From Escherichia phage vB_EcoS-CHD2B1: DNA of 45,144 nt. The position numbers were made by a program, and so were the translations under genes. Shown piece by piece: positions 16,266-43,180 of the stretch. Within the stretch, counting starts at the first letter, position 1. The number at the start of each line of letters is the position of its first letter. Where the stretch lies: sequence record MZ234026.1, one strand, 5' to 3'. The notes under the pieces were generated by a model. The model did no database searches and was not told the origin of the DNA. It worked only from the letters and a program-made list of their open reading frames with translations.

Positions 16266-18308
16266 TTATGCTTTGGTCAGTGCCGCTACGGCAGCTTTCA
16301 ATTCCTCCAGTTCTTTCTGCATATCTTCCACTTTACGCCCCATAAAGACCATCGCGCACGCCATATCTGTTAACATGACGTTGCTGTCAAGTGCCAGCGT
16401 GTCGTCGTAGTAGTCGCCGTCTTCGGCTTTGAATCCTTCAGTCCCTACGAGGTCCGGGTTTTTAAGTGCGCCGGGGATAATCTTCACGTATTGCGGATCG
16501 ATTTTCACCAGGTCCTGCGCGATAAGGCCATAGCGCTGGATTTCCGACCCTTTATACTTAAACATTGTGGGAAGCCACTGCATCACTCGATCGTAGCTTT
16601 CTTTCCCTTCCGTGTACTTAATATCGTGCTTCAGGTCACGGTCGGACGTAGGCGCTTTGGAAAATGTGTACGCGCCGAATGTACCGCTGACCTGGATATC
16701 GCAACTGTTAACGACGAACTCGAAGTTGGTCCAGTTTTCGCCATCCCCTCGGCAGCGCAATGCCGCACGGGGCCAGTTCGCCGTGCCCTGAGAGATAAGC
16801 CCCCACGTGGCGCGGATAGGGTATCCGCCGGTTGATTGGGACCGCCAGGAGATTGCAGGAACCCAGCCGCCGTCGTTATTTCCGACGTCAGATAGCCACA
16901 CACCGCTGTCCCCGTAGTTGTTAGGCTGGTCCCAGCCGGTCTGGAAACCTTCGGCGATAAGTCGTCTGGCGGACATCTTTCCATCGGGTCTAAACCGGTA
17001 GCGCCATTCCGCCACGCCAGCATTCAGGACGTAGACCTCATAGGCTTCAAGCCCCGTCCCTCCCTGACGAATCGGCCCGGTAAACACCGCGCTATTTTGC
17101 CAGTTATACCGCGTGAATCCGGTATAGTCGTTCGGCTTTGGTGGGTTAAGCGACAGTAGCTGCACGGTGTTACTATCGACGCCGTTCAGAAGTAATTCGC
17201 CACCCTGCGCAGACGACAGGCGCTTGAATCCGTTAAAGTTACCTTCGACGTCGAGTTGATAGTAATGTGACCCCGAAGGCGTGATTACGCCGATCGTGTG
17301 CTTTCCGGTCCCTAGTTGTGTTTCTGCGTAGCTTTGCGTCGTTACCACGTCCTCACCGTTGCTATTCTTTAGCTTAGACTGGAACATTCCGCCCTGCGCC
17401 GATACGGTGTCGGGGGCTGATTTAACAGCGAGAGCACCCTTAAAAATAGGCTCGTTACCCTCCCCCAGTTCGAGGTTGGTGCGCGACGTCTGCACATCGG
17501 CAACGCCTGCAAGGTTGCCGGATTTAGTTAGCAGATTATCCGCGTTTACGCTTTGCGCCCATTCTTCGGCCTGATCGCGAAATCCCTGCGCGGCAGTGCT
17601 GGCGGCTTGCGCGTCAGTCTTCGCAGTATTGGCTTCATCGCGAATAACGCCAGTATCCGTCTTAATCTGGTCGGTCTGGTCCTTGATAGACTGCGTATCA
17701 GTCTTAATCTGGTCGGTCTGCGTCTTGATCGTATTGGTGGCGTCGTGGATTGCCTGCGTGTCAGTCTTGATTTGGTCGGTCTGCGTCTTGATGGCATTGG
17801 CATCGTTCTTGAAGCCTTCGGCCTCATTGCGCGACACCAGCGCGGCGGCTTCCGATGCGGCGGCTTGTTGTTGCAGGTCGCGCATTTCGACGGGGTCTAC
17901 TTCCTTCAACAAGGATGACAGGTAGCCCCATGACATTCCCTGCATAACTTGCCCGTTTGGCAGCGTTACCGTGACTTCTTCAGCGTCGCCGAAGATTGCA
18001 CGCCAGTTGTTTTCATCCGCGATCATCAAGCGTAGTGCTTTCTGCGCCTGGACGGTTACGCCCATCGTTGCAAGGGACATGGTATCGCGCGCCACGCTAT
18101 CCCATGCGAGGCCGGTTGCCGTTGGGCCATCGAATGGCAGCGCCAGTGTAAGCGCGGTGTCGCTCTCAATGGATGCAATAGCAATAGTGTAAGGGACTTG
18201 CCCTACTACCAGCGACAGGAAGTCGCCCGCCTTCAGCGCGGTAAGCGTTGTGCCGTCTCCAGTCACCGCGGTGCTGTTATTCGTTACGGATAGTGTACCC
18301 GCTGCCAT
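16266..18308 (-). CDS. Tail fiber protein with internal tandem repeats and C-terminal intramolecular chaperone (peptidase S74-like) domain
   Basis: ATG at 18308 with GAGGA RBS (ORF track starts at upstream TTG 18335); repeats TQTDQIKTDTQ; C-terminal SDRDLKHDI...YGLIAQDL. Confidence 0.7.
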   Translation of the reverse strand: MAAGTLSVTNNSTAVTGDGTTLTALKAGDFLSLVVGQVPYTIAIASIESDTALTLALPFDGPTATGLAWDSVARDTMSLATMGVTVQAQKALRLMIADENNWRAIFGDAEEVTVTLPNGQVMQGMSWGYLSSLLKEVDPVEMRDLQQQAAASEAAALVSRNEAEGFKNDANAIKTQTDQIKTDTQAIHDATNTIKTQTDQIKTDTQSIKDQTDQIKTDTGVIRDEANTAKTDAQAASTAAQGFRDQAEEWAQSVNADNLLTKSGNLAGVADVQTSRTNLELGEGNEPIFKGALAVKSAPDTVSAQGGMFQSKLKNSNGEDVVTTQSYAETQLGTGKHTIGVITPSGSHYYQLDVEGNFNGFKRLSSAQGGELLLNGVDSNTVQLLSLNPPKPNDYTGFTRYNWQNSAVFTGPIRQGGTGLEAYEVYVLNAGVAEWRYRFRPDGKMSARRLIAEGFQTGWDQPNNYGDSGVWLSDVGNNDGGWVPAISWRSQSTGGYPIRATWGLISQGTANWPRAALRCRGDGENWTNFEFVVNSCDIQVSGTFGAYTFSKAPTSDRDLKHDIKYTEGKESYDRVMQWLPTMFKYKGSEIQRYGLIAQDLVKIDPQYVKIIPGALKNPDLVGTEGFKAEDGDYYDDTLALDSNVMLTDMACAMVFMGRKVEDMQKELEELKAAVAALTKA
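17570..17830. repeat. Tandem ~33-bp coding repeats inside tail fiber gene
   Basis: Repeated gtcttaatctggtcggtctg / gtcttgatttggtcggtctgcgtcttgat units encoding KTDTQ-type repeats. Confidence 0.6.
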
Positions 18309-18329
18309 AGCTAAATCCTCATAAATTGG

Positions 18330-18358
18330 TTGCATTCTTGATCGAGCGGTGTAATACT
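18330..18358 (+). promoter_or_regulatory. Putative promoter TTGCAT-N17-AATACT overlapping TTGGTTGCAT motif, driving the plus-strand island
   Basis: Motif at 18326..18335; upstream of lipoprotein gene. Confidence 0.4.
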
Positions 18359-18388: not shown

Positions 18389-18610
18389 ATGAAAACTTTA
18401 ATTATGATTTGTGCTGTTCTTTTGTCCGGTTGTGCCGTAGAACGCAACAACGGTGATTGCATTACGGTGGCTTACGGAAGCTGCATGTTGCGTTATGTTG
18501 ACGGGCAAAAAGTCCCTGCCGGAGACGTGGACATGCGCTTCACTGGCCTATCTGCCGATAGCGACGGCAATTTCTCAGGTACTGTATCAGTTAAATCACG
18601 GGAGTGGTAA
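18389..18610 (+). CDS. Small lipoprotein (candidate Llp/Cor-like superinfection-exclusion protein)
   Basis: 73 aa; signal peptide with lipobox MKTLIMICAVLLSGC; AGGAGA RBS; located among tail genes on the opposite strand. Confidence 0.6.
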   Translation: MKTLIMICAVLLSGCAVERNNGDCITVAYGSCMLRYVDGQKVPAGDVDMRFTGLSADSDGNFSGTVSVKSREW

Positions 18611-33606: not shown

Positions 33607-34311
33607 TTACTCGTCGTCGCCCATCTTAGCGATGATATCCCCTGCCTGTTTCGTCAGGTCGGTGATACCGAAGCTATGGCCCATCGTGATTTTAGACTTC
33701 GCATCTTCGATAACCTGTGTCGGTTTGCTCGGTGCGCCACCGGCTGGCGTGCCAGCCAGGACGGATGCAAAATCGGCGTTATTACGGAACTCTTTTTCAA
33801 GCTCGTCCATAGTCAGAGCGGACGGTTTGCCATCCTGCAAGACGCGCACTTTCAAGCTGCCGTCTTCGCCGTCTTCCAGCGCGAGGCGCTCCATTACGTG
33901 GCGTTGCATGATGCCAGCATTCTTACCGAACAGCTTCGAGGCCAGGTCTTTGGCAGCGCTGCCGATTGTAAGGTCATGGATCTGTTTGCGATAGGATTCG
34001 ATTTTCCCCGATGTGTCTGCTTCGTGTTTTGCAAACTTATCCTTCCAGGACTTATCGATCGCTTCGAGGTCGCCATTTTTGCGCGCGGCGGCTTCCTCTT
34101 TCTCTTTCGCAAGGCGCTCGGCTTCGGCGCGGCGTTCAGCTTCTGCTTTCTTCTCGCTCACCAGCTTTGCGTTGTTGTCTTTCAGACCCTTGATTTCCGC
34201 CTGTACTTCGTCAGCGGACATAAATGTTGATTTATACCCGTCGCCATCGGCAACAAAGAGCGCCTTCATACTTTCCGGCAACGCGTCATATTCTGCTTTA
34301 GTAAGTTTCAT
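33607..34311 (-). CDS. Scaffolding protein
   Basis: 234 aa from ATG 34311 (GGGGGA RBS); charged coiled-coil KKAEAERRAEAERLAKEKEE; directly upstream of capsid gene. Confidence 0.6.
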   Translation of the reverse strand: MKLTKAEYDALPESMKALFVADGDGYKSTFMSADEVQAEIKGLKDNNAKLVSEKKAEAERRAEAERLAKEKEEAAARKNGDLEAIDKSWKDKFAKHEADTSGKIESYRKQIHDLTIGSAAKDLASKLFGKNAGIMQRHVMERLALEDGEDGSLKVRVLQDGKPSALTMDELEKEFRNNADFASVLAGTPAGGAPSKPTQVIEDAKSKITMGHSFGITDLTKQAGDIIAKMGDDE

Positions 34312-34401
34312 GCTATCCCCCTGGGATTGTGGCAGAGCGGGCCACCCGCTCGACTTCACGCCTCTAATATTATCAGCGATAAAAATAATCGCAAAATTCG
34401 C

Positions 34402-34431
34402 TTGCAATTCAGGTATTGGTTGCACTATATT
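34402..34431 (+). promoter_or_regulatory. Sigma70-like promoter TTGCAA-N18-TATATT with two TTGGTTGCAC motifs
   Basis: Motifs at 34417..34426 and 34431..34440; upstream of plus-strand gene 34461. Confidence 0.5.
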
Positions 34432-34460
34432 GGTTGCACACCAACAATGAGGACACACAA

Positions 34461-35225
34461 ATGAGACTGACAAAAGACATTAAAAACCAGATTCTGGCTA
34501 ACATTCTGCGCGACCACGAAATCGCGACTGAAGCCAAAAAAATCATGATGGACTCTCGCGACCTGGCGTATGACATTACGTTGCACTGTATGCCAAAAGG
34601 CATTCACACGTTCGCCGAGCTACGCGCATATATCGCAGAAATCCGCGATAACCAGTCGCAGATGTACGGCGTCAGCGTTTACACCGATAAAGCGTCGTAC
34701 AGCTATAACAAGGACCGGACGAAAGGCATTGGACGCGTTTACTGCTCCACTTTCGAAATCAACGCAGGCGGTAACATCCGTACCCTGCATATGAGCGGCG
34801 ACGGATACCGCTACCGCCAGCACCGCGGATACTGGGAAGAGAAATATATGAATACGCTCGCGCCGGATCTCAGCGATATAGTACCGGGGTACGAGGAAGT
34901 TATGCTCGCGTCAGTGTGTGAAGTGGACGAGAACGGGGCCGCGCTGCCGATATATCTCCCGCGCGGTCGCGTAGACTACCCGGCAGATCATGATTTCTGC
35001 AAGCGCCTGGACCGCAACGACAAGGCCCGCCGTGAATTGCGTGCGAAGTATGACGCGTTCAAACTAACTGTTACCGGCGTGCTGGATATGCACAATACTG
35101 ACAAGAAGCTGATCGCGGCGTGGCCTGAAGTTGAACAGTTCATTCCATACCCGGACAAGCCGAAGTCAACGGCAGTAGCGCTGGACGTGAAGACGTTAAA
35201 CGAGATTTGCGGTATTCCGCGCTAA
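34461..35225 (+). CDS. Hypothetical 254-aa protein encoded as a plus-strand moron inside the structural module
   Basis: ATG with GAGGA RBS; own promoter and terminator; no recognisable domain by eye. Confidence 0.6.
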   Translation: MRLTKDIKNQILANILRDHEIATEAKKIMMDSRDLAYDITLHCMPKGIHTFAELRAYIAEIRDNQSQMYGVSVYTDKASYSYNKDRTKGIGRVYCSTFEINAGGNIRTLHMSGDGYRYRQHRGYWEEKYMNTLAPDLSDIVPGYEEVMLASVCEVDENGAALPIYLPRGRVDYPADHDFCKRLDRNDKARRELRAKYDAFKLTVTGVLDMHNTDKKLIAAWPEVEQFIPYPDKPKSTAVALDVKTLNEICGIPR

Positions 35226-35258
35226 CAAAAAGGGGGCCATTACGGCCCCCGAATTATT
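35226..35258. terminator. Bidirectional hairpin terminator (GGGGGCC attac GGCCCCC)
   Basis: Between convergent genes; the o-spanin stop codon lies in the loop. Confidence 0.6.
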
Positions 35259-35470
35259 TTCTGCAACTCCAGCACTTGCGCCCTCAGCTTAGCCCCGCAT
35301 TCCATATTTTTAACATCAACAAGCAAGTCCTCGTCTGGATCTGCCGAGGCATTCTCAAAGGTGCAAGGCGGTCTATAGACCGACTCGGTTAGCGGCGTCG
35401 ATGGCGCTTTGCTTGATCCGCACGCGCTCAGCATCAAAACTACAATCAGGACGGTTAGGACGCGTAACAT
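35240..35470 (-). CDS. Outer-membrane spanin (Rz1-like lipoprotein), overlapping the i-spanin gene out of frame
   Basis: 76 aa; lipobox LMLSAC; Pro-rich mature part; GAGG RBS; overlaps 35373..35470. Confidence 0.65.
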   Translation of the reverse strand: MLRVLTVLIVVLMLSACGSSKAPSTPLTESVYRPPCTFENASADPDEDLLVDVKNMECGAKLRAQVLELQKIIRGP

Positions 35471-35681
35471 ATTTTACAACCTCTTTCGTGATAGTCCGGT
35501 ATTCCACGTCGCGGGCTTGCTCAGCCTTCACCGACCCCTCAACAACCTTAGTTTGCTGCCGTTGGGCTTCGGCTTGCGCTTCTTGCGCCGCTTTCGCCAC
35601 AACGCCAGTGCGGTAGGAATCACCCTGCCAGAATCCAACCGCCAGACCGATAACCAGTCCAATCGCTGCATATTTAATCAC
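35373..35681 (-). CDS. Inner-membrane spanin (Rz-like): N-terminal TM helix plus periplasmic coiled coil
   Basis: TM segment VIKYAAIGLVIGLAVGFW; probable GTG start at 35681 (GGGGG RBS); ORF track gives TTG at 35711. Confidence 0.6.
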   Translation of the reverse strand: MIKYAAIGLVIGLAVGFWQGDSYRTGVVAKAAQEAQAEAQRQQTKVVEGSVKAEQARDVEYRTITKEVVKYVTRPNRPDCSFDAERVRIKQSAIDAANRVGL

Positions 35682-36777
35682 GCCATAACCCCCGGTTTTT
35701 AAGCTGTGCAATAGTCATTAGTTCGCCAGTATCTGTGAACATCCTCGGCACTTTCACGCCGCGCATAATCTGGTCTGCGCGCTGCACCCCATATAATTCC
35801 TCCAGAATATGGCGCGGCTGGCGCTGCACCCATGAGAAGAAATCAGTCTGCGCGTCGACCTGCTCACTCAGCAATCGACCCGCGTCAGCCTTCAGTGCCG
35901 GACGCTTACCACTGGGCCAATCTTCCATGCCTTTGACTTTCCACGTCTCCGTAGACCGGCAGCAATAATGCAGCTTGCCCGGACCAGCGCCATATTGTGA
36001 CCCAGCCACCACTTTCCCGCCGCGCTTTCCTTTGGTGTCGGGAGTAACATCAACTGGATAAAACAGGCGATCGCGTAGCTGGCACATGGGAGAAGTATGC
36101 GTATCCAATGTAGCCAACCATTGGCGACCTTCGAGAATATCGTCATTAGCTTTTACCATTAATTCGCGGGCGGTCGCCGCATAGTGGTTTACTGCGGACT
36201 TAACAACGCTTGAGATTGCCTGCGCACTACGACCGCCGAGAGCGCGCCTTACGTCCGCGATAATTTCCATAGTCGGCTTGCCCTGGATGAATCCAGCGCG
36301 CACCTGATTACCGATCTGCGTCCTGGTCCACTCCGAAAGTGAATCGGGCCATTGCATCATGGTGTTACCCTGGAATGGGTTTTTCATAGCCGTCGCTGCG
36401 ATCTGCGCGCCAGTCACTACGCCAACAACCTCAACAGCCGGTACGGCGACCGCTGGCTGGATCGCTGCCGTTAATGTATCGGCAAGATAATCAGCCTCCG
36501 TGTCGGCGAACTCCTGAAGGCTTTCAGCCAGCGCCTTAAACTCGGTGCGCAGTTCCGTTTTGACGGTCTTGTCGATTTGCGTTAACAGTGTGGTCAGTGC
36601 CTTGTTATTCATGGACTTTTTGCCATCAAGTAACTCGGTCAGCTTACCAAGTAACGTGGGCCGGAACTTCTCCCACATAGTCAGCACCCTTCGCGCCTGG
36701 TCATTGCTCAGGCGCTGGGTGAAGATGTGACGGCGAATCATACGATCCGCCATATGTTGATTAATTGTTCTCGCCAT
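35674..36777 (-). CDS. Head morphogenesis protein (Mu F / SPP1 gp7-like minor head protein)
   Basis: 367 aa; position immediately downstream of portal. Confidence 0.6.
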   Translation of the reverse strand: MARTINQHMADRMIRRHIFTQRLSNDQARRVLTMWEKFRPTLLGKLTELLDGKKSMNNKALTTLLTQIDKTVKTELRTEFKALAESLQEFADTEADYLADTLTAAIQPAVAVPAVEVVGVVTGAQIAATAMKNPFQGNTMMQWPDSLSEWTRTQIGNQVRAGFIQGKPTMEIIADVRRALGGRSAQAISSVVKSAVNHYAATARELMVKANDDILEGRQWLATLDTHTSPMCQLRDRLFYPVDVTPDTKGKRGGKVVAGSQYGAGPGKLHYCCRSTETWKVKGMEDWPSGKRPALKADAGRLLSEQVDAQTDFFSWVQRQPRHILEELYGVQRADQIMRGVKVPRMFTDTGELMTIAQLKNRGLWRD

Positions 36778-38281
36778 TGTCCGTTACCTTGTCCGGGTCT
36801 TCTTCGGTAGATTCTACCGCATCAGGGGACATTTGAGGCAATGGATTCTGATTTCGCAATTCGTCTTCCACCTGCTCGACGGTTTGCGAGTCGTCGATAA
36901 CGCCCTGCGCCATCATCCACTTGATAAAGTCAGCCAGTCGGACCGTGCCAGTCTGCACACCTGACATCATTGCGGTCATAAGCTGCGCGTCAACCGTGAT
37001 TTCGGTGTAGAACTTGTTCAACGTGACTTGCTGCACTGCGGTGTCACCGGTGAATAGCTGGACGATTTGCAGCGCACGGTTGAAAGCCTTCTCAACGTTA
37101 CCGGCAATGAGCGACAAGATACTGTTATCAGTCTGCGCATCGTAGGCCGCTTCGGTTGCCGTCTTCGGTGCGGTCCCCTTCTCAACCAGGGCCGCGCCCA
37201 GTTTAGCCATCTGCAATTCGCGGCGCTCACAAAGTGCAACAGACAAGTTGCGCTCCTCGGCCTGAATCAGTTTAGCGTCCATGTTCTGGCCCAGGATAAC
37301 GCCCTTAGTCGCACCGAGAGCGATGCCACCCTTCAGGTTTTTGTCGGCCCATGATTGAGTCAAGCCCGTGGCAACCAGGGTAGGCTGGCCCACGATGTGC
37401 GCAATCTCGGCGACGTCCGCCTCAGCGTTGTAGTGCTTAATGTTGATGGATGCAATATCCGCCAGCGGCGCGGCGTCCGGCGTGGCGTTGTTGTCCACTG
37501 CACCACACCAGCAAAATGGCAGTTGAGTAAGCGCCCGACCGGCAGCATCTACCAAAGGTACAAGGTCGGTGCGGGTGAATCCGCGCGGCAAGTCCATTTG
37601 CACCTCGGACGTGTCCGCGTTGTAAAACCAGCGGCGGGCGTGCGCCTTGCCGTCAACCATGCGAAGCTCGGTCCAGATCGTTACTTCGTGGTTTGCGAAG
37701 TCGTCCGGGTCTTCGGTGCTGATTTCGTCCGTTTCCTTCAGCACGATTAGCGTATCGACGCCGTGAGTCTGCCGCCAGTTGATGATCTGTTCTGCCGTAT
37801 ACAGGCGGATAAGCGGGCGGTGTGTCGCCATCTCGGCGGCGGTCTGCGGCACTACGTTACCCAGTTCATCAAAGTTAGCCTGGCGGTCGTAGTCCACCAT
37901 AAAGCCAGCGCGGCCCGATTGCAGCACTTCCGACATAGCACCGCGCAGGAGTTGCGCGAGCGGCATTCCGCTGCCGTCTACGTCATCAATCAGGTCAGCC
38001 ATCGCCCCGGTAAGGTCCACACTAACAGGTTTAGCGAAAGCAACGCCTAACAGCGCGTTAAGAGTACGTGCGGTGGCGTTCAGGAATACAGCACGTTGCT
38101 TATACGCCTTATATCGCGCCCGTGCTTTCGGGTCGGTATTGTCGCCACTGGCTGGGTGGGGCAGGTACAAAGGACCGCACGCCTTCACGGCGCGCTCCCC
38201 TGCTACGCAATCCCGAATCATTTTCCACTCTTGCGCGATGCGCGCATAGAGTGGGTGTTGGTTGTCAACGTTAACGGTCAT
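36761..38281 (-). CDS. Portal protein
   Basis: 506 aa from ATG 38281 (AAGGAA RBS); position downstream of terminase large subunit. Confidence 0.7.
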   Translation of the reverse strand: MTVNVDNQHPLYARIAQEWKMIRDCVAGERAVKACGPLYLPHPASGDNTDPKARARYKAYKQRAVFLNATARTLNALLGVAFAKPVSVDLTGAMADLIDDVDGSGMPLAQLLRGAMSEVLQSGRAGFMVDYDRQANFDELGNVVPQTAAEMATHRPLIRLYTAEQIINWRQTHGVDTLIVLKETDEISTEDPDDFANHEVTIWTELRMVDGKAHARRWFYNADTSEVQMDLPRGFTRTDLVPLVDAAGRALTQLPFCWCGAVDNNATPDAAPLADIASINIKHYNAEADVAEIAHIVGQPTLVATGLTQSWADKNLKGGIALGATKGVILGQNMDAKLIQAEERNLSVALCERRELQMAKLGAALVEKGTAPKTATEAAYDAQTDNSILSLIAGNVEKAFNRALQIVQLFTGDTAVQQVTLNKFYTEITVDAQLMTAMMSGVQTGTVRLADFIKWMMAQGVIDDSQTVEQVEDELRNQNPLPQMSPDAVESTEEDPDKVTDNGENN

Positions 38282-40311: not shown

Positions 40312-40338
40312 CAAAAAAGCCCACCAAATCGGCGGGCT
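40312..40338 (-). terminator. Rho-independent terminator on minus strand (GCCCGCC gattt GGTGGGC plus 6 T)
   Basis: Located between gene 40346..40558 and terminase small subunit gene. Confidence 0.55.
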
Positions 40339-40345
40339 GGGAGGG

Positions 40346-40558
40346 TTAAACGGCGCGACCGTAGTATCTGGTCAACATGCTTTCTACTTCGCTTATAGCG
40401 CCTTCTGTGTAGCGTATCTGCGATAGTATCTCGATCCGCTCACTGATAGACATGCCTATTGCCGCTGCCGTTCGTTCGAATCGGCGCAAGCCTTCAAGCT
40501 GTTTGCGAAGCTCTTTCAGGCGGGTGGCCTGCGTGCTCATGAATACTTGTCTAATCAT
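40346..40558 (-). CDS. Small coiled-coil hypothetical protein (70 aa)
   Basis: ORF overlapping the upstream gene stop. Confidence 0.45.
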   Translation of the reverse strand: MIRQVFMSTQATRLKELRKQLEGLRRFERTAAAIGMSISERIEILSQIRYTEGAISEVESMLTRYYGRAV

Positions 40559-41697
40559 TTCAACATTTCCGGGCTAATGGTTAAGCGCGCTACTTCGCCG
40601 TAGTTGGCGCTATAGGTGATGACGTTAGCACTACGACCAGACATCCAACCGCCGCGGCTCGCATATGCGTCTTTCGCGGCAAGGGTCCGGTGCTGTTCAA
40701 CAATCATGTTGCGGGATTCAACAATCTTCTGGTGGTGCAAGTGGCCCACGTGCGCGTAGCTGTACTCACTGGACCCGAAAGCCTGTCTGAATTTAGAAAT
40801 CATGACCGGTTCGATGGCGTCAAAGCGTGCTTTGTGTCCGTGGTGGAAGAACAGCGTTGTTTTACCGTGCTGCACCATTTTGTAAACGTCCGGGGACGTG
40901 TCCACATCAACGCGCGGCTCGTTCTCGTACAGGGTATTGAACATCTCAGCCAGCCAAATCATACCGGACTCATCATGATTACCCTGGACGATTAACAGTT
41001 TGACCTTATGGTGTTTTTGCAGCGCCAGTTCAACCACGTTGCGCACCATGCAAATCATGTAGCGGACCAGTTTCTGGTAGCGGGTATCTGCGTCCAGTAC
41101 GTGACCACTGGCTGGCGTGACGGCGTCGAGGCTGTCAAAGTGGGCCATATCACCGAGGATATTGATTACAGCAGTGCCAGCGTCCGGCGCGCGGGCGAAG
41201 GCTTCGACAAACCAGCGGTAAAAAAGGTCTTCGGCGATTGCCATATCCCAGTCCTCGCCAGTCTCCTCGCCCCACGCCAACATTCCCAGGTGGAAGTCTG
41301 ACACGGTATACAGGTTAAGCAGGTCAAGCGCCTGGATCGGGACTGGCGGAGCGCTCACTGGTGCTGCCGGTGTGATTTCGCTATTCATGCCCTCGACAAC
41401 GGCGCGCATTGCTTCGAGTTGGCGCTCCTTGTCCTGCTCGGTGATAACCCAGGACATGACCTCTTCGCCATTGCCACGCACAAGGGCGGAGACACGCTTA
41501 ACGCCGAAGCCATCGGCAACGCGCTTACGGATTACAGCATCGTTGCCGTGTCCAATGCCTTTCTTCGACAGGCGAGCTTTGCGCATATAGACATTTCGAA
41601 GGGCAATGCCGTATTTCTTCGCAATATCTTTCGAGGTAGTGCCAGATTGCAATTCAGCGATCAATTGCTCGTCGGTAATTTTAGTTTGCGGGTGCAT
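40555..41697 (-). CDS. Calcineurin-like metallophosphoesterase (SbcD/Mre11-like motifs) with N-terminal helix-turn-helix domain
   Basis: 380 aa; N-terminal TSKDIAKKYGIALRNVYMRK; motifs YTVSDFHLG, ILGDMAHFD, VQGNHDE, GHLHH. Confidence 0.65.
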   Translation of the reverse strand: MHPQTKITDEQLIAELQSGTTSKDIAKKYGIALRNVYMRKARLSKKGIGHGNDAVIRKRVADGFGVKRVSALVRGNGEEVMSWVITEQDKERQLEAMRAVVEGMNSEITPAAPVSAPPVPIQALDLLNLYTVSDFHLGMLAWGEETGEDWDMAIAEDLFYRWFVEAFARAPDAGTAVINILGDMAHFDSLDAVTPASGHVLDADTRYQKLVRYMICMVRNVVELALQKHHKVKLLIVQGNHDESGMIWLAEMFNTLYENEPRVDVDTSPDVYKMVQHGKTTLFFHHGHKARFDAIEPVMISKFRQAFGSSEYSYAHVGHLHHQKIVESRNMIVEQHRTLAAKDAYASRGGWMSGRSANVITYSANYGEVARLTISPEMLK

Positions 41698-41904: not shown

Positions 41905-41932
41905 ATAAAAAGCCCGGAATTAACCGGGCTTC
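41905..41932 (-). terminator. Rho-independent terminator on minus strand (AGCCCGG ttaatt CCGGGCT plus TTTTTATT)
   Basis: Immediately after the lysis cassette. Confidence 0.6.
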
Positions 41933-41936
41933 GTGT

Positions 41937-42107
41937 TTATGCCGCGGGGCCTGGTTCTTCCGGCGGTGGCGGGCTTGGCAGCTTCGCGTCAAAGACACCC
42001 GCATGACTGATAGTGTCCGCGATAATGGCGCGCGCGCCTGGGTCTTCCGTTTTAGCCAGTGCGGCAAGCGCGTCCGCGTTATGATCAAGAATACTTTTTA
42101 ACATACT
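41937..42107 (-). CDS. Small protein with Pro-rich C-terminus (56 aa), last gene of lysis cassette
   Basis: ATG 42107 with AAGAGGAA RBS; ...KLPSPPPPEEPGPAA. Confidence 0.5.
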   Translation of the reverse strand, partial: SMLKSILDHNADALAALAKTEDPGARAIIADTISHAGVFDAKLPSPPPPEEPGPAA

Positions 42108-42120
42108 GTGTTTCCTCTTA

Positions 42121-42612
42121 TTATGCCGCGTTACGACCGATTTTCTCGGCAACGTCCCACTGCTTACCATCGAATAGCGCCTGTCTGCCGATTGCACGAC
42201 GTACCAGGCCCTTGAGCACTTCACCGCCTTGCTTGCGGAACTGCGGCAGCGTAGCACGGACTTTGGCCCAATCACCCAGGCGCACCGCGTCATCGAAGTC
42301 ATTGGCAATGTTATCCGGTACGATCGGACCTTGACCGGCATTGATTACCAGATCCACCAGCGCGTCGAATTGCGCCTGATTGATGCTCGGGTGTGCGTAC
42401 TTGTTCACCCAGTTCTCGGCATACGCCACATCACGCTTGAGTAGCTCCAGCGCTTCCGCGCGGGTAATGCTCTGTGGCGGATTAGTGCCAGTATGACCGT
42501 AGCCCCAGGTGTACAAGCCGCGGGCCTGCTCCTTCTTAGTCGCGAAATACGGCACTGGGCTGAACGACTCCCACGCTGCCGTAAATCTTAGACCGTTGTC
42601 ACTAAATCGCAT
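42121..42612 (-). CDS. Endolysin, phage lysozyme (glycoside hydrolase family 24-like)
   Basis: 163 aa; GLYTWGYGHTG and NQAQFDALVDLVINAGQ resemble the P22/T4-type lysozyme core. Confidence 0.8.
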   Translation of the reverse strand: MRFSDNGLRFTAAWESFSPVPYFATKKEQARGLYTWGYGHTGTNPPQSITRAEALELLKRDVAYAENWVNKYAHPSINQAQFDALVDLVINAGQGPIVPDNIANDFDDAVRLGDWAKVRATLPQFRKQGGEVLKGLVRRAIGRQALFDGKQWDVAEKIGRNAA

Positions 42613-42841
42613 GTTTTACCCCATTTAAAACAGCATTACGCAGTGTGCGTAATGCGAATAGCCAGATTAGCACGGACCAGACTGTATTCGATACGTCCCC
42701 CGTTTGCATCAGGCCAATAATACAGGTCATTGCTGTAAGCAGGTAGAGCACCCGTCCGCAAATGCCATCCTGGACGGATGGCGCGTATACGTTATACAGC
42801 GACGAAGCCCCGATCACTAATAACAGGATGGCGATAATCAT
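42602..42841 (-). CDS. Holin or antiholin (small membrane protein)
   Basis: 79 aa with 2-3 predicted TM helices; directly upstream of endolysin. Confidence 0.55.
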   Translation of the reverse strand: MIIAILLLVIGASSLYNVYAPSVQDGICGRVLYLLTAMTCIIGLMQTGDVSNTVWSVLIWLFALRTLRNAVLNGVKHAI

Positions 42842-43128
42842 TTTGCATTCCCCGGCAGACGGAACGAGGAAATTGCTTCACGGATTCTGGCGGCGACCGG
42901 CATCCAGAAGATTGCCGTTACGAAGCCAAGACCGGCGACAGTTCTCGGTCCGGTTAGATTAAACCACTCGGCAATAGCTGGTGCCCCAAACACGGCGCAC
43001 AAGAAGCCGACCACGATAAACAACACAAAATTTAGCGGCCCTTTCGTTGCCTCACCGTGAATGCGAGCGCCAACGAAGCCACCTGCAAGACACGCGAGGG
43101 CGAATAACCACTCGTTTAGCTTATCCAT
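42838..43128 (-). CDS. Holin (small membrane protein)
   Basis: 96 aa; TM helices WLFALACLAGGFVGA and FVLFIVVGFLCAVFGA; charged C-terminus. Confidence 0.6.
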   Translation of the reverse strand: MDKLNEWLFALACLAGGFVGARIHGEATKGPLNFVLFIVVGFLCAVFGAPAIAEWFNLTGPRTVAGLGFVTAIFWMPVAARIREAISSFRLPGNAK

Positions 43129-43162
43129 AAAAAAGTCCCAGTAAGTTTTAGCTCACTGGGAC
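43129..43162 (-). terminator. Hairpin plus U-run immediately upstream of holin start codon (terminator or translational control structure)
   Basis: GTCCCAGT ... ACTGGGAC 8-bp stem followed on the minus strand by TTTTTT and then ATG. Confidence 0.4.
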
Positions 43163-43180
43163 TATATCACGACTGCATAT

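Follow-up and report, generated by a model that had tools for sequence, protein, structure and literature searches.

The window analysed here is the whole 45,144-nucleotide stretch of record MZ234026.1 from Escherichia phage vB_EcoS-CHD2B1 (CHD2B1), a Dhillonvirus (HK578-like) coliphage. A 2.6-kb query covering positions 34300..36900 matched 157 phage records, nearly all from HK578-like siphoviruses (Dhillonvirus) of Escherichia, and the best match, vB_EcoS_WFI, was 99.7% identical over this interval. Two overlapping open reading frames on the minus strand occupy positions 35240 to 35681, exactly the limits within which the original prediction had placed an overlapping gene pair. The upstream frame (35373..35681, minus strand) is referred to below as the i-spanin (Rz-like) gene and the downstream frame (35240..35470, minus strand) as the o-spanin (Rz1-like) gene.

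The i-spanin gene encodes a protein of 102 aa from a GTG start. In the translation of the frame running from 35681 to 35373 the protein begins MIKYAAIGLVIGLAVGFWQGDS..., and its longer opening stretch reads MIKYAAIGLVIGLAVGFWQGDSYR.... At this GTG the gene overlaps the end of the upstream 367-aa head-morphogenesis gene, with its TAA stop, by 8 nt (GTGATTAA). A second candidate start, an in-frame TTG at 35711, lies 30 nt upstream of the GTG at 35681 (35682..35711, minus strand); it would prepend MHSLKTGGYG to the protein, with codons lying wholly within the head-morphogenesis gene. The profile phrog_2536, annotated as Rz-like spanin, matched the i-spanin (E = 5.7e-34). Residues 4 to 19, approximately (YAAIGLVIGLAVGFWQ, codons 35625..35672, minus strand), make up the sole strongly hydrophobic stretch of the protein by hydropathy, with a maximum Kyte-Doolittle 15-residue mean of 2.05, and the other 82 residues are 33% charged.

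Of the architecture first proposed for this protein, an N-terminal transmembrane helix followed by a periplasmic coiled coil, the helix was recovered at residues ~4-19 and the coiled coil was not: a crude test gave no signal, 0.71 of shuffled sequences reaching the observed 3.5-residue hydrophobic periodicity and the best heptad register having hydrophobic residues, mostly Ala, at 7 of its 14 a/d positions. A single-sequence AlphaFold2 model of low confidence (pLDDT 57) has two helices, residues 5-72 and 84-99, interrupted at RPNRPDC, which weakly supports a mostly helical periplasmic domain. The position of the i-spanin stop differs within Dhillonvirus. Five relatives share the length of 102 aa seen here, and in eleven others the protein reaches 109 aa, ending in the tail ...GVGTATAVQVR without any indel (stop at ~3328..3330 in the relatives' loci L006-L016). 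Since the stop position varies, the length of the two-frame overlap varies among close relatives.

The o-spanin gene starts with ATG and encodes a 76-aa precursor (opening MLRVLTVLIVVLMLSACGSSKAPSTPL...) with a predicted mature length of 60 aa. Its N-terminus reads MLRVLTVLIVVLMLSAC followed by GSS..., so that the lipobox LSAC with the predicted lipidated Cys17 is followed by Gly-Ser. The four lipobox codons (residues 14-17) lie at 35420..35431 on the minus strand. A lipoprotein gene with this lipobox had been proposed from the start, and the regular-expression and hydropathy scan agreed, returning a predicted signal peptidase II signal peptide, the cysteine at position 17 and Gly at position +2. 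As the +2 residue is Gly and not Asp, the protein carries no inner-membrane retention signal. A strict lipoprotein scan of all ATG, GTG and TTG reading frames of at least 35 aa in the whole window returned the o-spanin as its sole candidate. The description of the lipoprotein as proline-rich was borne out in part: prolines are present, and their enrichment is modest (6 of the 60 mature residues, ~10%). The mature protein also contains two further cysteines.

Two profiles matched the o-spanin, phrog_5672 (E = 1.2e-25) and phrog_1267 (E = 2.5e-12), both annotated as Rz-like spanin, and a weak match to phrog_6561 (E = 0.0026) was also seen in the PHROG search of the two proteins. Neither the i-spanin nor the o-spanin reached threshold in a search of Pfam, which is therefore uninformative for this pair. 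Translation of the o-spanin gene has a Shine-Dalgarno sequence available, AAGAGG at 35480..35485 (minus strand), 9 nt upstream of the ATG and within the i-spanin coding sequence.

The o-spanin gene starts 211 nt into the i-spanin gene and is therefore in the +1 frame. As originally described, the lipoprotein gene thus overlaps out of frame the 3' end of the gene for the membrane protein; the two-frame stretch spans 98 nt (35373..35470, minus strand) and encodes the C-terminus of the i-spanin together with the signal peptide and the mature start of the o-spanin. Coding in both frames was examined in a set of 16 distinct Dhillonvirus sequences, drawn from the window, two GenBank relatives (Oekolampad and vB_EcoS_WFI) and 14 IMG/VR contigs. 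The 442-nt region aligned in all of them with zero indels and with both frames open. In the part that is i-spanin only, pN/pS was 0.13 in the i-spanin frame vs. 1.43 and 2.28 in the other frames, and in the part that is o-spanin only (130 nt) it was 0.13 in the o-spanin frame vs. 3.13 and 3.76. The proportion of variable sites was 0.19 in the overlap, compared to 0.27 and 0.30 in the unique parts. Each of the two frames is maintained by purifying selection, and the overlapping pair is more than a product of chance.

These data bear directly on the alternative of a single genuine gene, that for the 102-aa protein, with the lipoprotein frame arising by accident from the +1 frame and the downstream spacer. 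Some deposited genomes, vB_EcoS_WFI for example, annotate the upstream gene alone, and within the overlap pN/pS of the o-spanin frame rises to 0.91. Such a relaxed pattern is, however, what a signal peptide tolerates, and the frame-specific substitution pattern of the unique part rules out a chance reading frame. The frame is moreover open in all 16 sequences with Cys17, Cys36 and Cys58 invariant, its product is 45% identical to the o-spanins of phages Jersey and K1G and has the profile match of E = 1.2e-25, and the Shine-Dalgarno sequence is strong. We give this alternative practically no chance. Oekolampad alone has MSAC as its lipobox, the other 15 of the 16 sequences having LSAC, and Jersey and K1G likewise retain the lipobox Cys. 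Three further cysteines, Cys80 of the i-spanin and Cys36 and Cys58 of the o-spanin, show no variation in Dhillonvirus, Jersey or K1G.

The spanin genes are followed by a G+C-rich hairpin terminator at 35232..35250, found by a terminator scan of both strands, annotated in vB_EcoS_WFI and common to the spanins and the convergent gene on the plus strand. The last codons of the o-spanin gene (R-G-P) form the 5' arm of the hairpin and its stop codon TAA lies in the loop, so the o-spanin C-terminus and the terminator stem constrain each other. The o-spanins of relatives end in ...IIRGP, ...IIKGP and, once, ...IIRGL. After the stem the minus strand reads TTTTTGTT. A terminator at the end of the spanin genes had been foreseen, assigned to the neighbouring moron; the hairpin is there, and its assignment to the moron alone does not hold, since the better T-tract is on the spanin strand and the element is at least equally the terminator of the spanins.

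The gene taken for a moron is a full-length gene with a nucleotide modification associated domain 5 (Nmad5; 34461..35225, plus strand; PF18757, E = 2.6e-56) that converges on the spanin genes, and it is the sole plus-strand gene in the spanin neighbourhood. In the phages WF5505, CHD5UKE2 and rolling the matching Nmad5 stretch is several hundred bases longer and carries an additional gene labelled DNA polymerase III beta subunit. Beyond the Nmad5 gene lie a minus-strand scaffold gene (phrog_206) and then the capsid gene. On the other side, a 367-aa head-morphogenesis gene of the SPP1 gp7/Mu F-like type (35674..36777, minus strand; phrog_241, E = 7.4e-116) precedes the spanin genes, which therefore lie between head morphogenesis and a terminator as proposed. 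Gene order at this head-morphogenesis/spanin locus is the same in Oekolampad, Jersey and K1G.

Further upstream on the minus strand, the small and large terminase genes and the portal gene lie between 40318 and the head-morphogenesis gene, as assigned by synteny with Oekolampad, and the terminator scan placed a terminator at 40338..40318. From these consensus terminators we infer that the spanin pair would form the final genes of a terminase-portal-head-morphogenesis transcription unit. Between this terminator and the next one upstream (41932..41909, minus strand) lies a 380-aa exonuclease-like gene (41697..40555, minus strand).

The other lysis genes are found in a separate block on the minus strand. 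Profile matches placed a holin (42838..43128; phrog_2359, E = 1.5e-32), a second holin (42602..42841; phrog_2508, E = 1.4e-24) and an endolysin (42121..42612; phrog_7, E = 8.1e-36) within 41937..43128, where holins and endolysin had been expected. The endolysin is of the soluble lysozyme type and has no N-terminal hydrophobic segment. The block ends with a 55-aa reading frame (41937..42104, minus strand) that has neither a transmembrane domain nor a lipobox and is matched along its entire length by phrog_11068 (E = 6.7e-39), whose function is unknown. Terminators on the same strand lie before the first holin gene (43163..43134) and after the 55-aa frame (at 41932..41909). In the slot of the 55-aa frame vB_EcoS_WFI instead has a 138-aa gene with a Big_2 domain; gene content at the end of the lysis unit thus varies.

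A distance of 6.4 kb separates the endolysin stop from the i-spanin start. The earlier view that the lysis functions are split over the late region is thereby upheld, the two groups of genes falling into two putative transcription units. An alternative or unimolecular spanin was sought beside the endolysin and not found, the soluble 55-aa frame being all that is there, and the whole window yielded no second spanin candidate. A lysis-cassette location, which is typical of spanins and does not define them, is thus not seen for this pair. Its off-cassette location is not disqualifying, because T4 and the whole Jersey family share it; T4 is the classic example, and Kongari et al. (2018, PMC6139136) note that its spanin genes do not adjoin those for its holin and endolysin.

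A looser lipobox scan of the whole window returned one additional reading frame (18389..18610, plus strand), whose 73-aa lipoprotein-like product begins MKTLIMICAVLLSGC.... It adjoins, and diverges from, a 689-aa tail fibre gene (16266..18335, minus strand) and is followed by a moron encoding a 324-aa 'membrane protein' (phrog_1265). The frame matched phrog_4281 (E = 3.7e-33), whose function is unknown, and gave a weak match to the Cor superinfection-exclusion family (E = 6e-4). The product is likely a receptor-masking exclusion lipoprotein. It was rejected as a second spanin, as no partner membrane-protein gene accompanies it.

With one such lipoprotein in the genome, the pair at 35240..35681 could in principle also be a membrane protein and a lipoprotein with a role outside lysis, in superinfection exclusion, in receptor masking of the Cor/Llp kind or as an assembly helper, the outer membrane being breached by other means. 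The presence of the Cor-like frame indicates that non-lysis lipoproteins occur in this phage, the location of the pair between head-morphogenesis and scaffold genes would suit such a role, and so would the failure of the crude test to detect heptad periodicity in the i-spanin. In the profile searches, nevertheless, both proteins hit several spanin PHROGs, with the weak phrog_6561 match as the sole hit to an exclusion family, and the pairing of the two genes, their overlap and their cysteines are kept from Dhillonvirus to Jersey and K1G. A genome with holins and an endolysin would in that case be left without any other spanin, unimolecular or two-component, and T4 demonstrates that spanin function is compatible with a place outside the cassette. 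We consider a non-lysis role very unlikely.

The reading of the pair as a two-component spanin is further supported by the annotation of close relatives. In Oekolampad (Bas18) the same two genes, of identical lengths (i-spanin 309 nt), are annotated as i-spanin and o-spanin, and the i-spanin is annotated as Rz-like spanin in Bas83, Bas85, JL1 and McMelon. Spanins of the BASEL phages were annotated by means of the SpaninDataBase (PMC8594841), and in work on a Dhillonvirus the lysis system has been given as holins 0031/0032, endolysin 0033 and spanin 0040 (PMC12677095). Kongari et al. (2018, PMC6139136) placed both subunits from EK99P-1, EP23, HK578, JL1, SSL-2009a and SO-1, all of which are Dhillonvirus or close kin, in an overlapped family named 'Jersey'. 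Its o-spanins have two constant cysteines, and a shorter subfamily, from EP23 to SO-1, is described as having two helices and a linker (PMC6139136). The CHD2B1 pair shares with this short subfamily the overlapped architecture, the short i-spanin with a single Cys and the two constant Cys of the o-spanin; there is no substantive difference beyond an i-spanin of 102 aa here and 109 aa in others. Identity to the other Dhillonviruses examined is 88-94% for the i-spanin (90% to that of JL1) and 78-96% for the o-spanin.

Homology extends beyond the genus. A tblastn search with the i-spanin matched 610 phage records, ~160 of them at Dhillonvirus level and the remainder coming largely from Jersey/K1G-type phages of Salmonella, Escherichia and Klebsiella. 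Against the Jersey locus tblastn gave E = 1.7e-11 for the i-spanin and E = 3.6e-13 for the o-spanin. In multiple alignments Jersey gp09/gp10 and K1G ORF5/ORF6 are homologous to the CHD2B1 pair (35-42% identity for the i-spanin, 45% for the o-spanin) and keep the transmembrane domain, the motif VKYVTRPxRxxCxFxxERV, the lipobox Cys and the PPC and EC cysteines. The i-spanins of Jersey and K1G have 128 aa compared to 102 aa in CHD2B1, owing to an extra insert after the transmembrane domain and a longer C-terminal tail, and the overlap in Jersey measures 155 nt compared to 98 nt.

In Jersey and Escherichia phage K1G (Guernseyvirinae) the spanin genes come after an SPP1-gp7/Mu-F-like head-morphogenesis gene and before a scaffold gene, as they do here. 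The neighbourhoods differ in that a head-decoration gene and a small reading frame separate the head-morphogenesis gene from the spanins in Jersey and K1G, and no convergent Nmad5 gene is present, the scaffold gene following the spanins directly. In Salmonella phage Jersey the genes for two holins and the endolysin are found a short way upstream of the terminase genes, on the far side of the genome end, and in CHD2B1 they are likewise upstream of the terminases. In the Jerseyvirus SeF1 the spanins gp009/010 belong to phrog_2536 and phrog_5672 and the holins gp063/064 to phrog_2359 and phrog_2508, the same four spanin and holin PHROGs that were matched in CHD2B1. As Jersey has the same split and K1G the same spanin slot, the split layout is, judged from synteny, old and conserved and no peculiarity of the CHD2B1 genome.

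The experimental prototype of two-component spanins, lambda Rz/Rz1, resembles the CHD2B1 pair in combining a type II inner-membrane protein with an outer-membrane lipoprotein encoded in the +1 frame, and in having periplasmic cysteines. Sequence similarity between them is undetectable at the Pfam level. The lambda Rz1 gene is fully embedded whereas the CHD2B1 genes overlap, and the lambda pair closes the S-R-Rz cassette whereas that of CHD2B1 is 6.4 kb off, in another putative transcription unit. Lambda Rz has 153 aa, and mature Rz1, with 40 aa, is far richer in proline than the CHD2B1 o-spanin. T4 PseT.3/PseT.2 is also a small two-component spanin encoded away from holin and endolysin, and its sizes (117 and 83 aa) are comparable to those found here (102 and 76 aa); it differs in its separated gene arrangement and belongs to an unrelated sequence family.

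Together, the PHROG spanin families, the alignment with Jersey and K1G, the annotation of near-identical phages and the listing by Kongari et al. endorse the proposed two-component spanin, and we conclude that the pair very probably represents the two subunits of a spanin of the 'Jersey' family in overlapped arrangement. Spanin function is here assigned by homology and architecture, since our literature searches turned up no experiment on lipidation, complex formation or lysis phenotype for any family member.

The complete holin-holin-endolysin set of CHD2B1 calls for a partner that breaches the outer membrane, and the role of the pair is presumably the same membrane fusion as that of lambda Rz/Rz1, from which, together with PMC6139136, the steps of the mechanism are drawn. 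By analogy with lambda, the i-spanin would be anchored in the inner membrane with a mostly helical domain of ~80 residues in the periplasm, and the o-spanin would be lipidated at Cys17 and sorted by the Lol system to the inner leaflet of the outer membrane. Joined through their C-terminal parts, both proteins would bridge the periplasm by passing through the murein, and intermolecular disulfides would stabilise them as disulfide-linked dimers; Cys80 of the i-spanin and Cys36 and Cys58 of the o-spanin are the candidates. Release of the endolysin (42121..42612) by the holins (42602..43128), followed by breakdown of the murein, would set the spanin complexes free, and their fusion of the inner and outer membranes would complete lysis. 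Overlapping the preceding stop at its start and closed directly by a terminator, the pair would be expressed as the last genes of the terminase-portal-head-morphogenesis unit and not from the holin-endolysin unit 6.4 kb upstream.

The placement of the spanins is retained across Dhillonvirus and Guernseyvirinae. It is conceivable, but in our judgement rather doubtful, that this fixed placement is functional design and not historical accident, the spanins being the last, translationally coupled cistrons of a packaging and head operon whose terminator lies inside the final codons of the o-spanin. If so, expression of the structural genes would set the dose and timing of the spanins independently of the holin-endolysin unit.

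The spanin pair and its off-cassette position are already known, from the database annotation of close relatives and from the published spanin census, and being already catalogued in close relatives the pair is an ordinary one. Several deposited Dhillonvirus genomes, including that of vB_EcoS_WFI, nevertheless call at least one of the two genes hypothetical or leave the o-spanin out. The confirmed pair completes the lysis gene set of CHD2B1, which then comprises two holins, an endolysin, an i-spanin and an o-spanin, and has little import beyond correct annotation. The conserved split between holin-endolysin unit and spanins is a reminder, already stated in the spanin literature, that searches for spanins should not stop at the neighbourhood of the endolysin.
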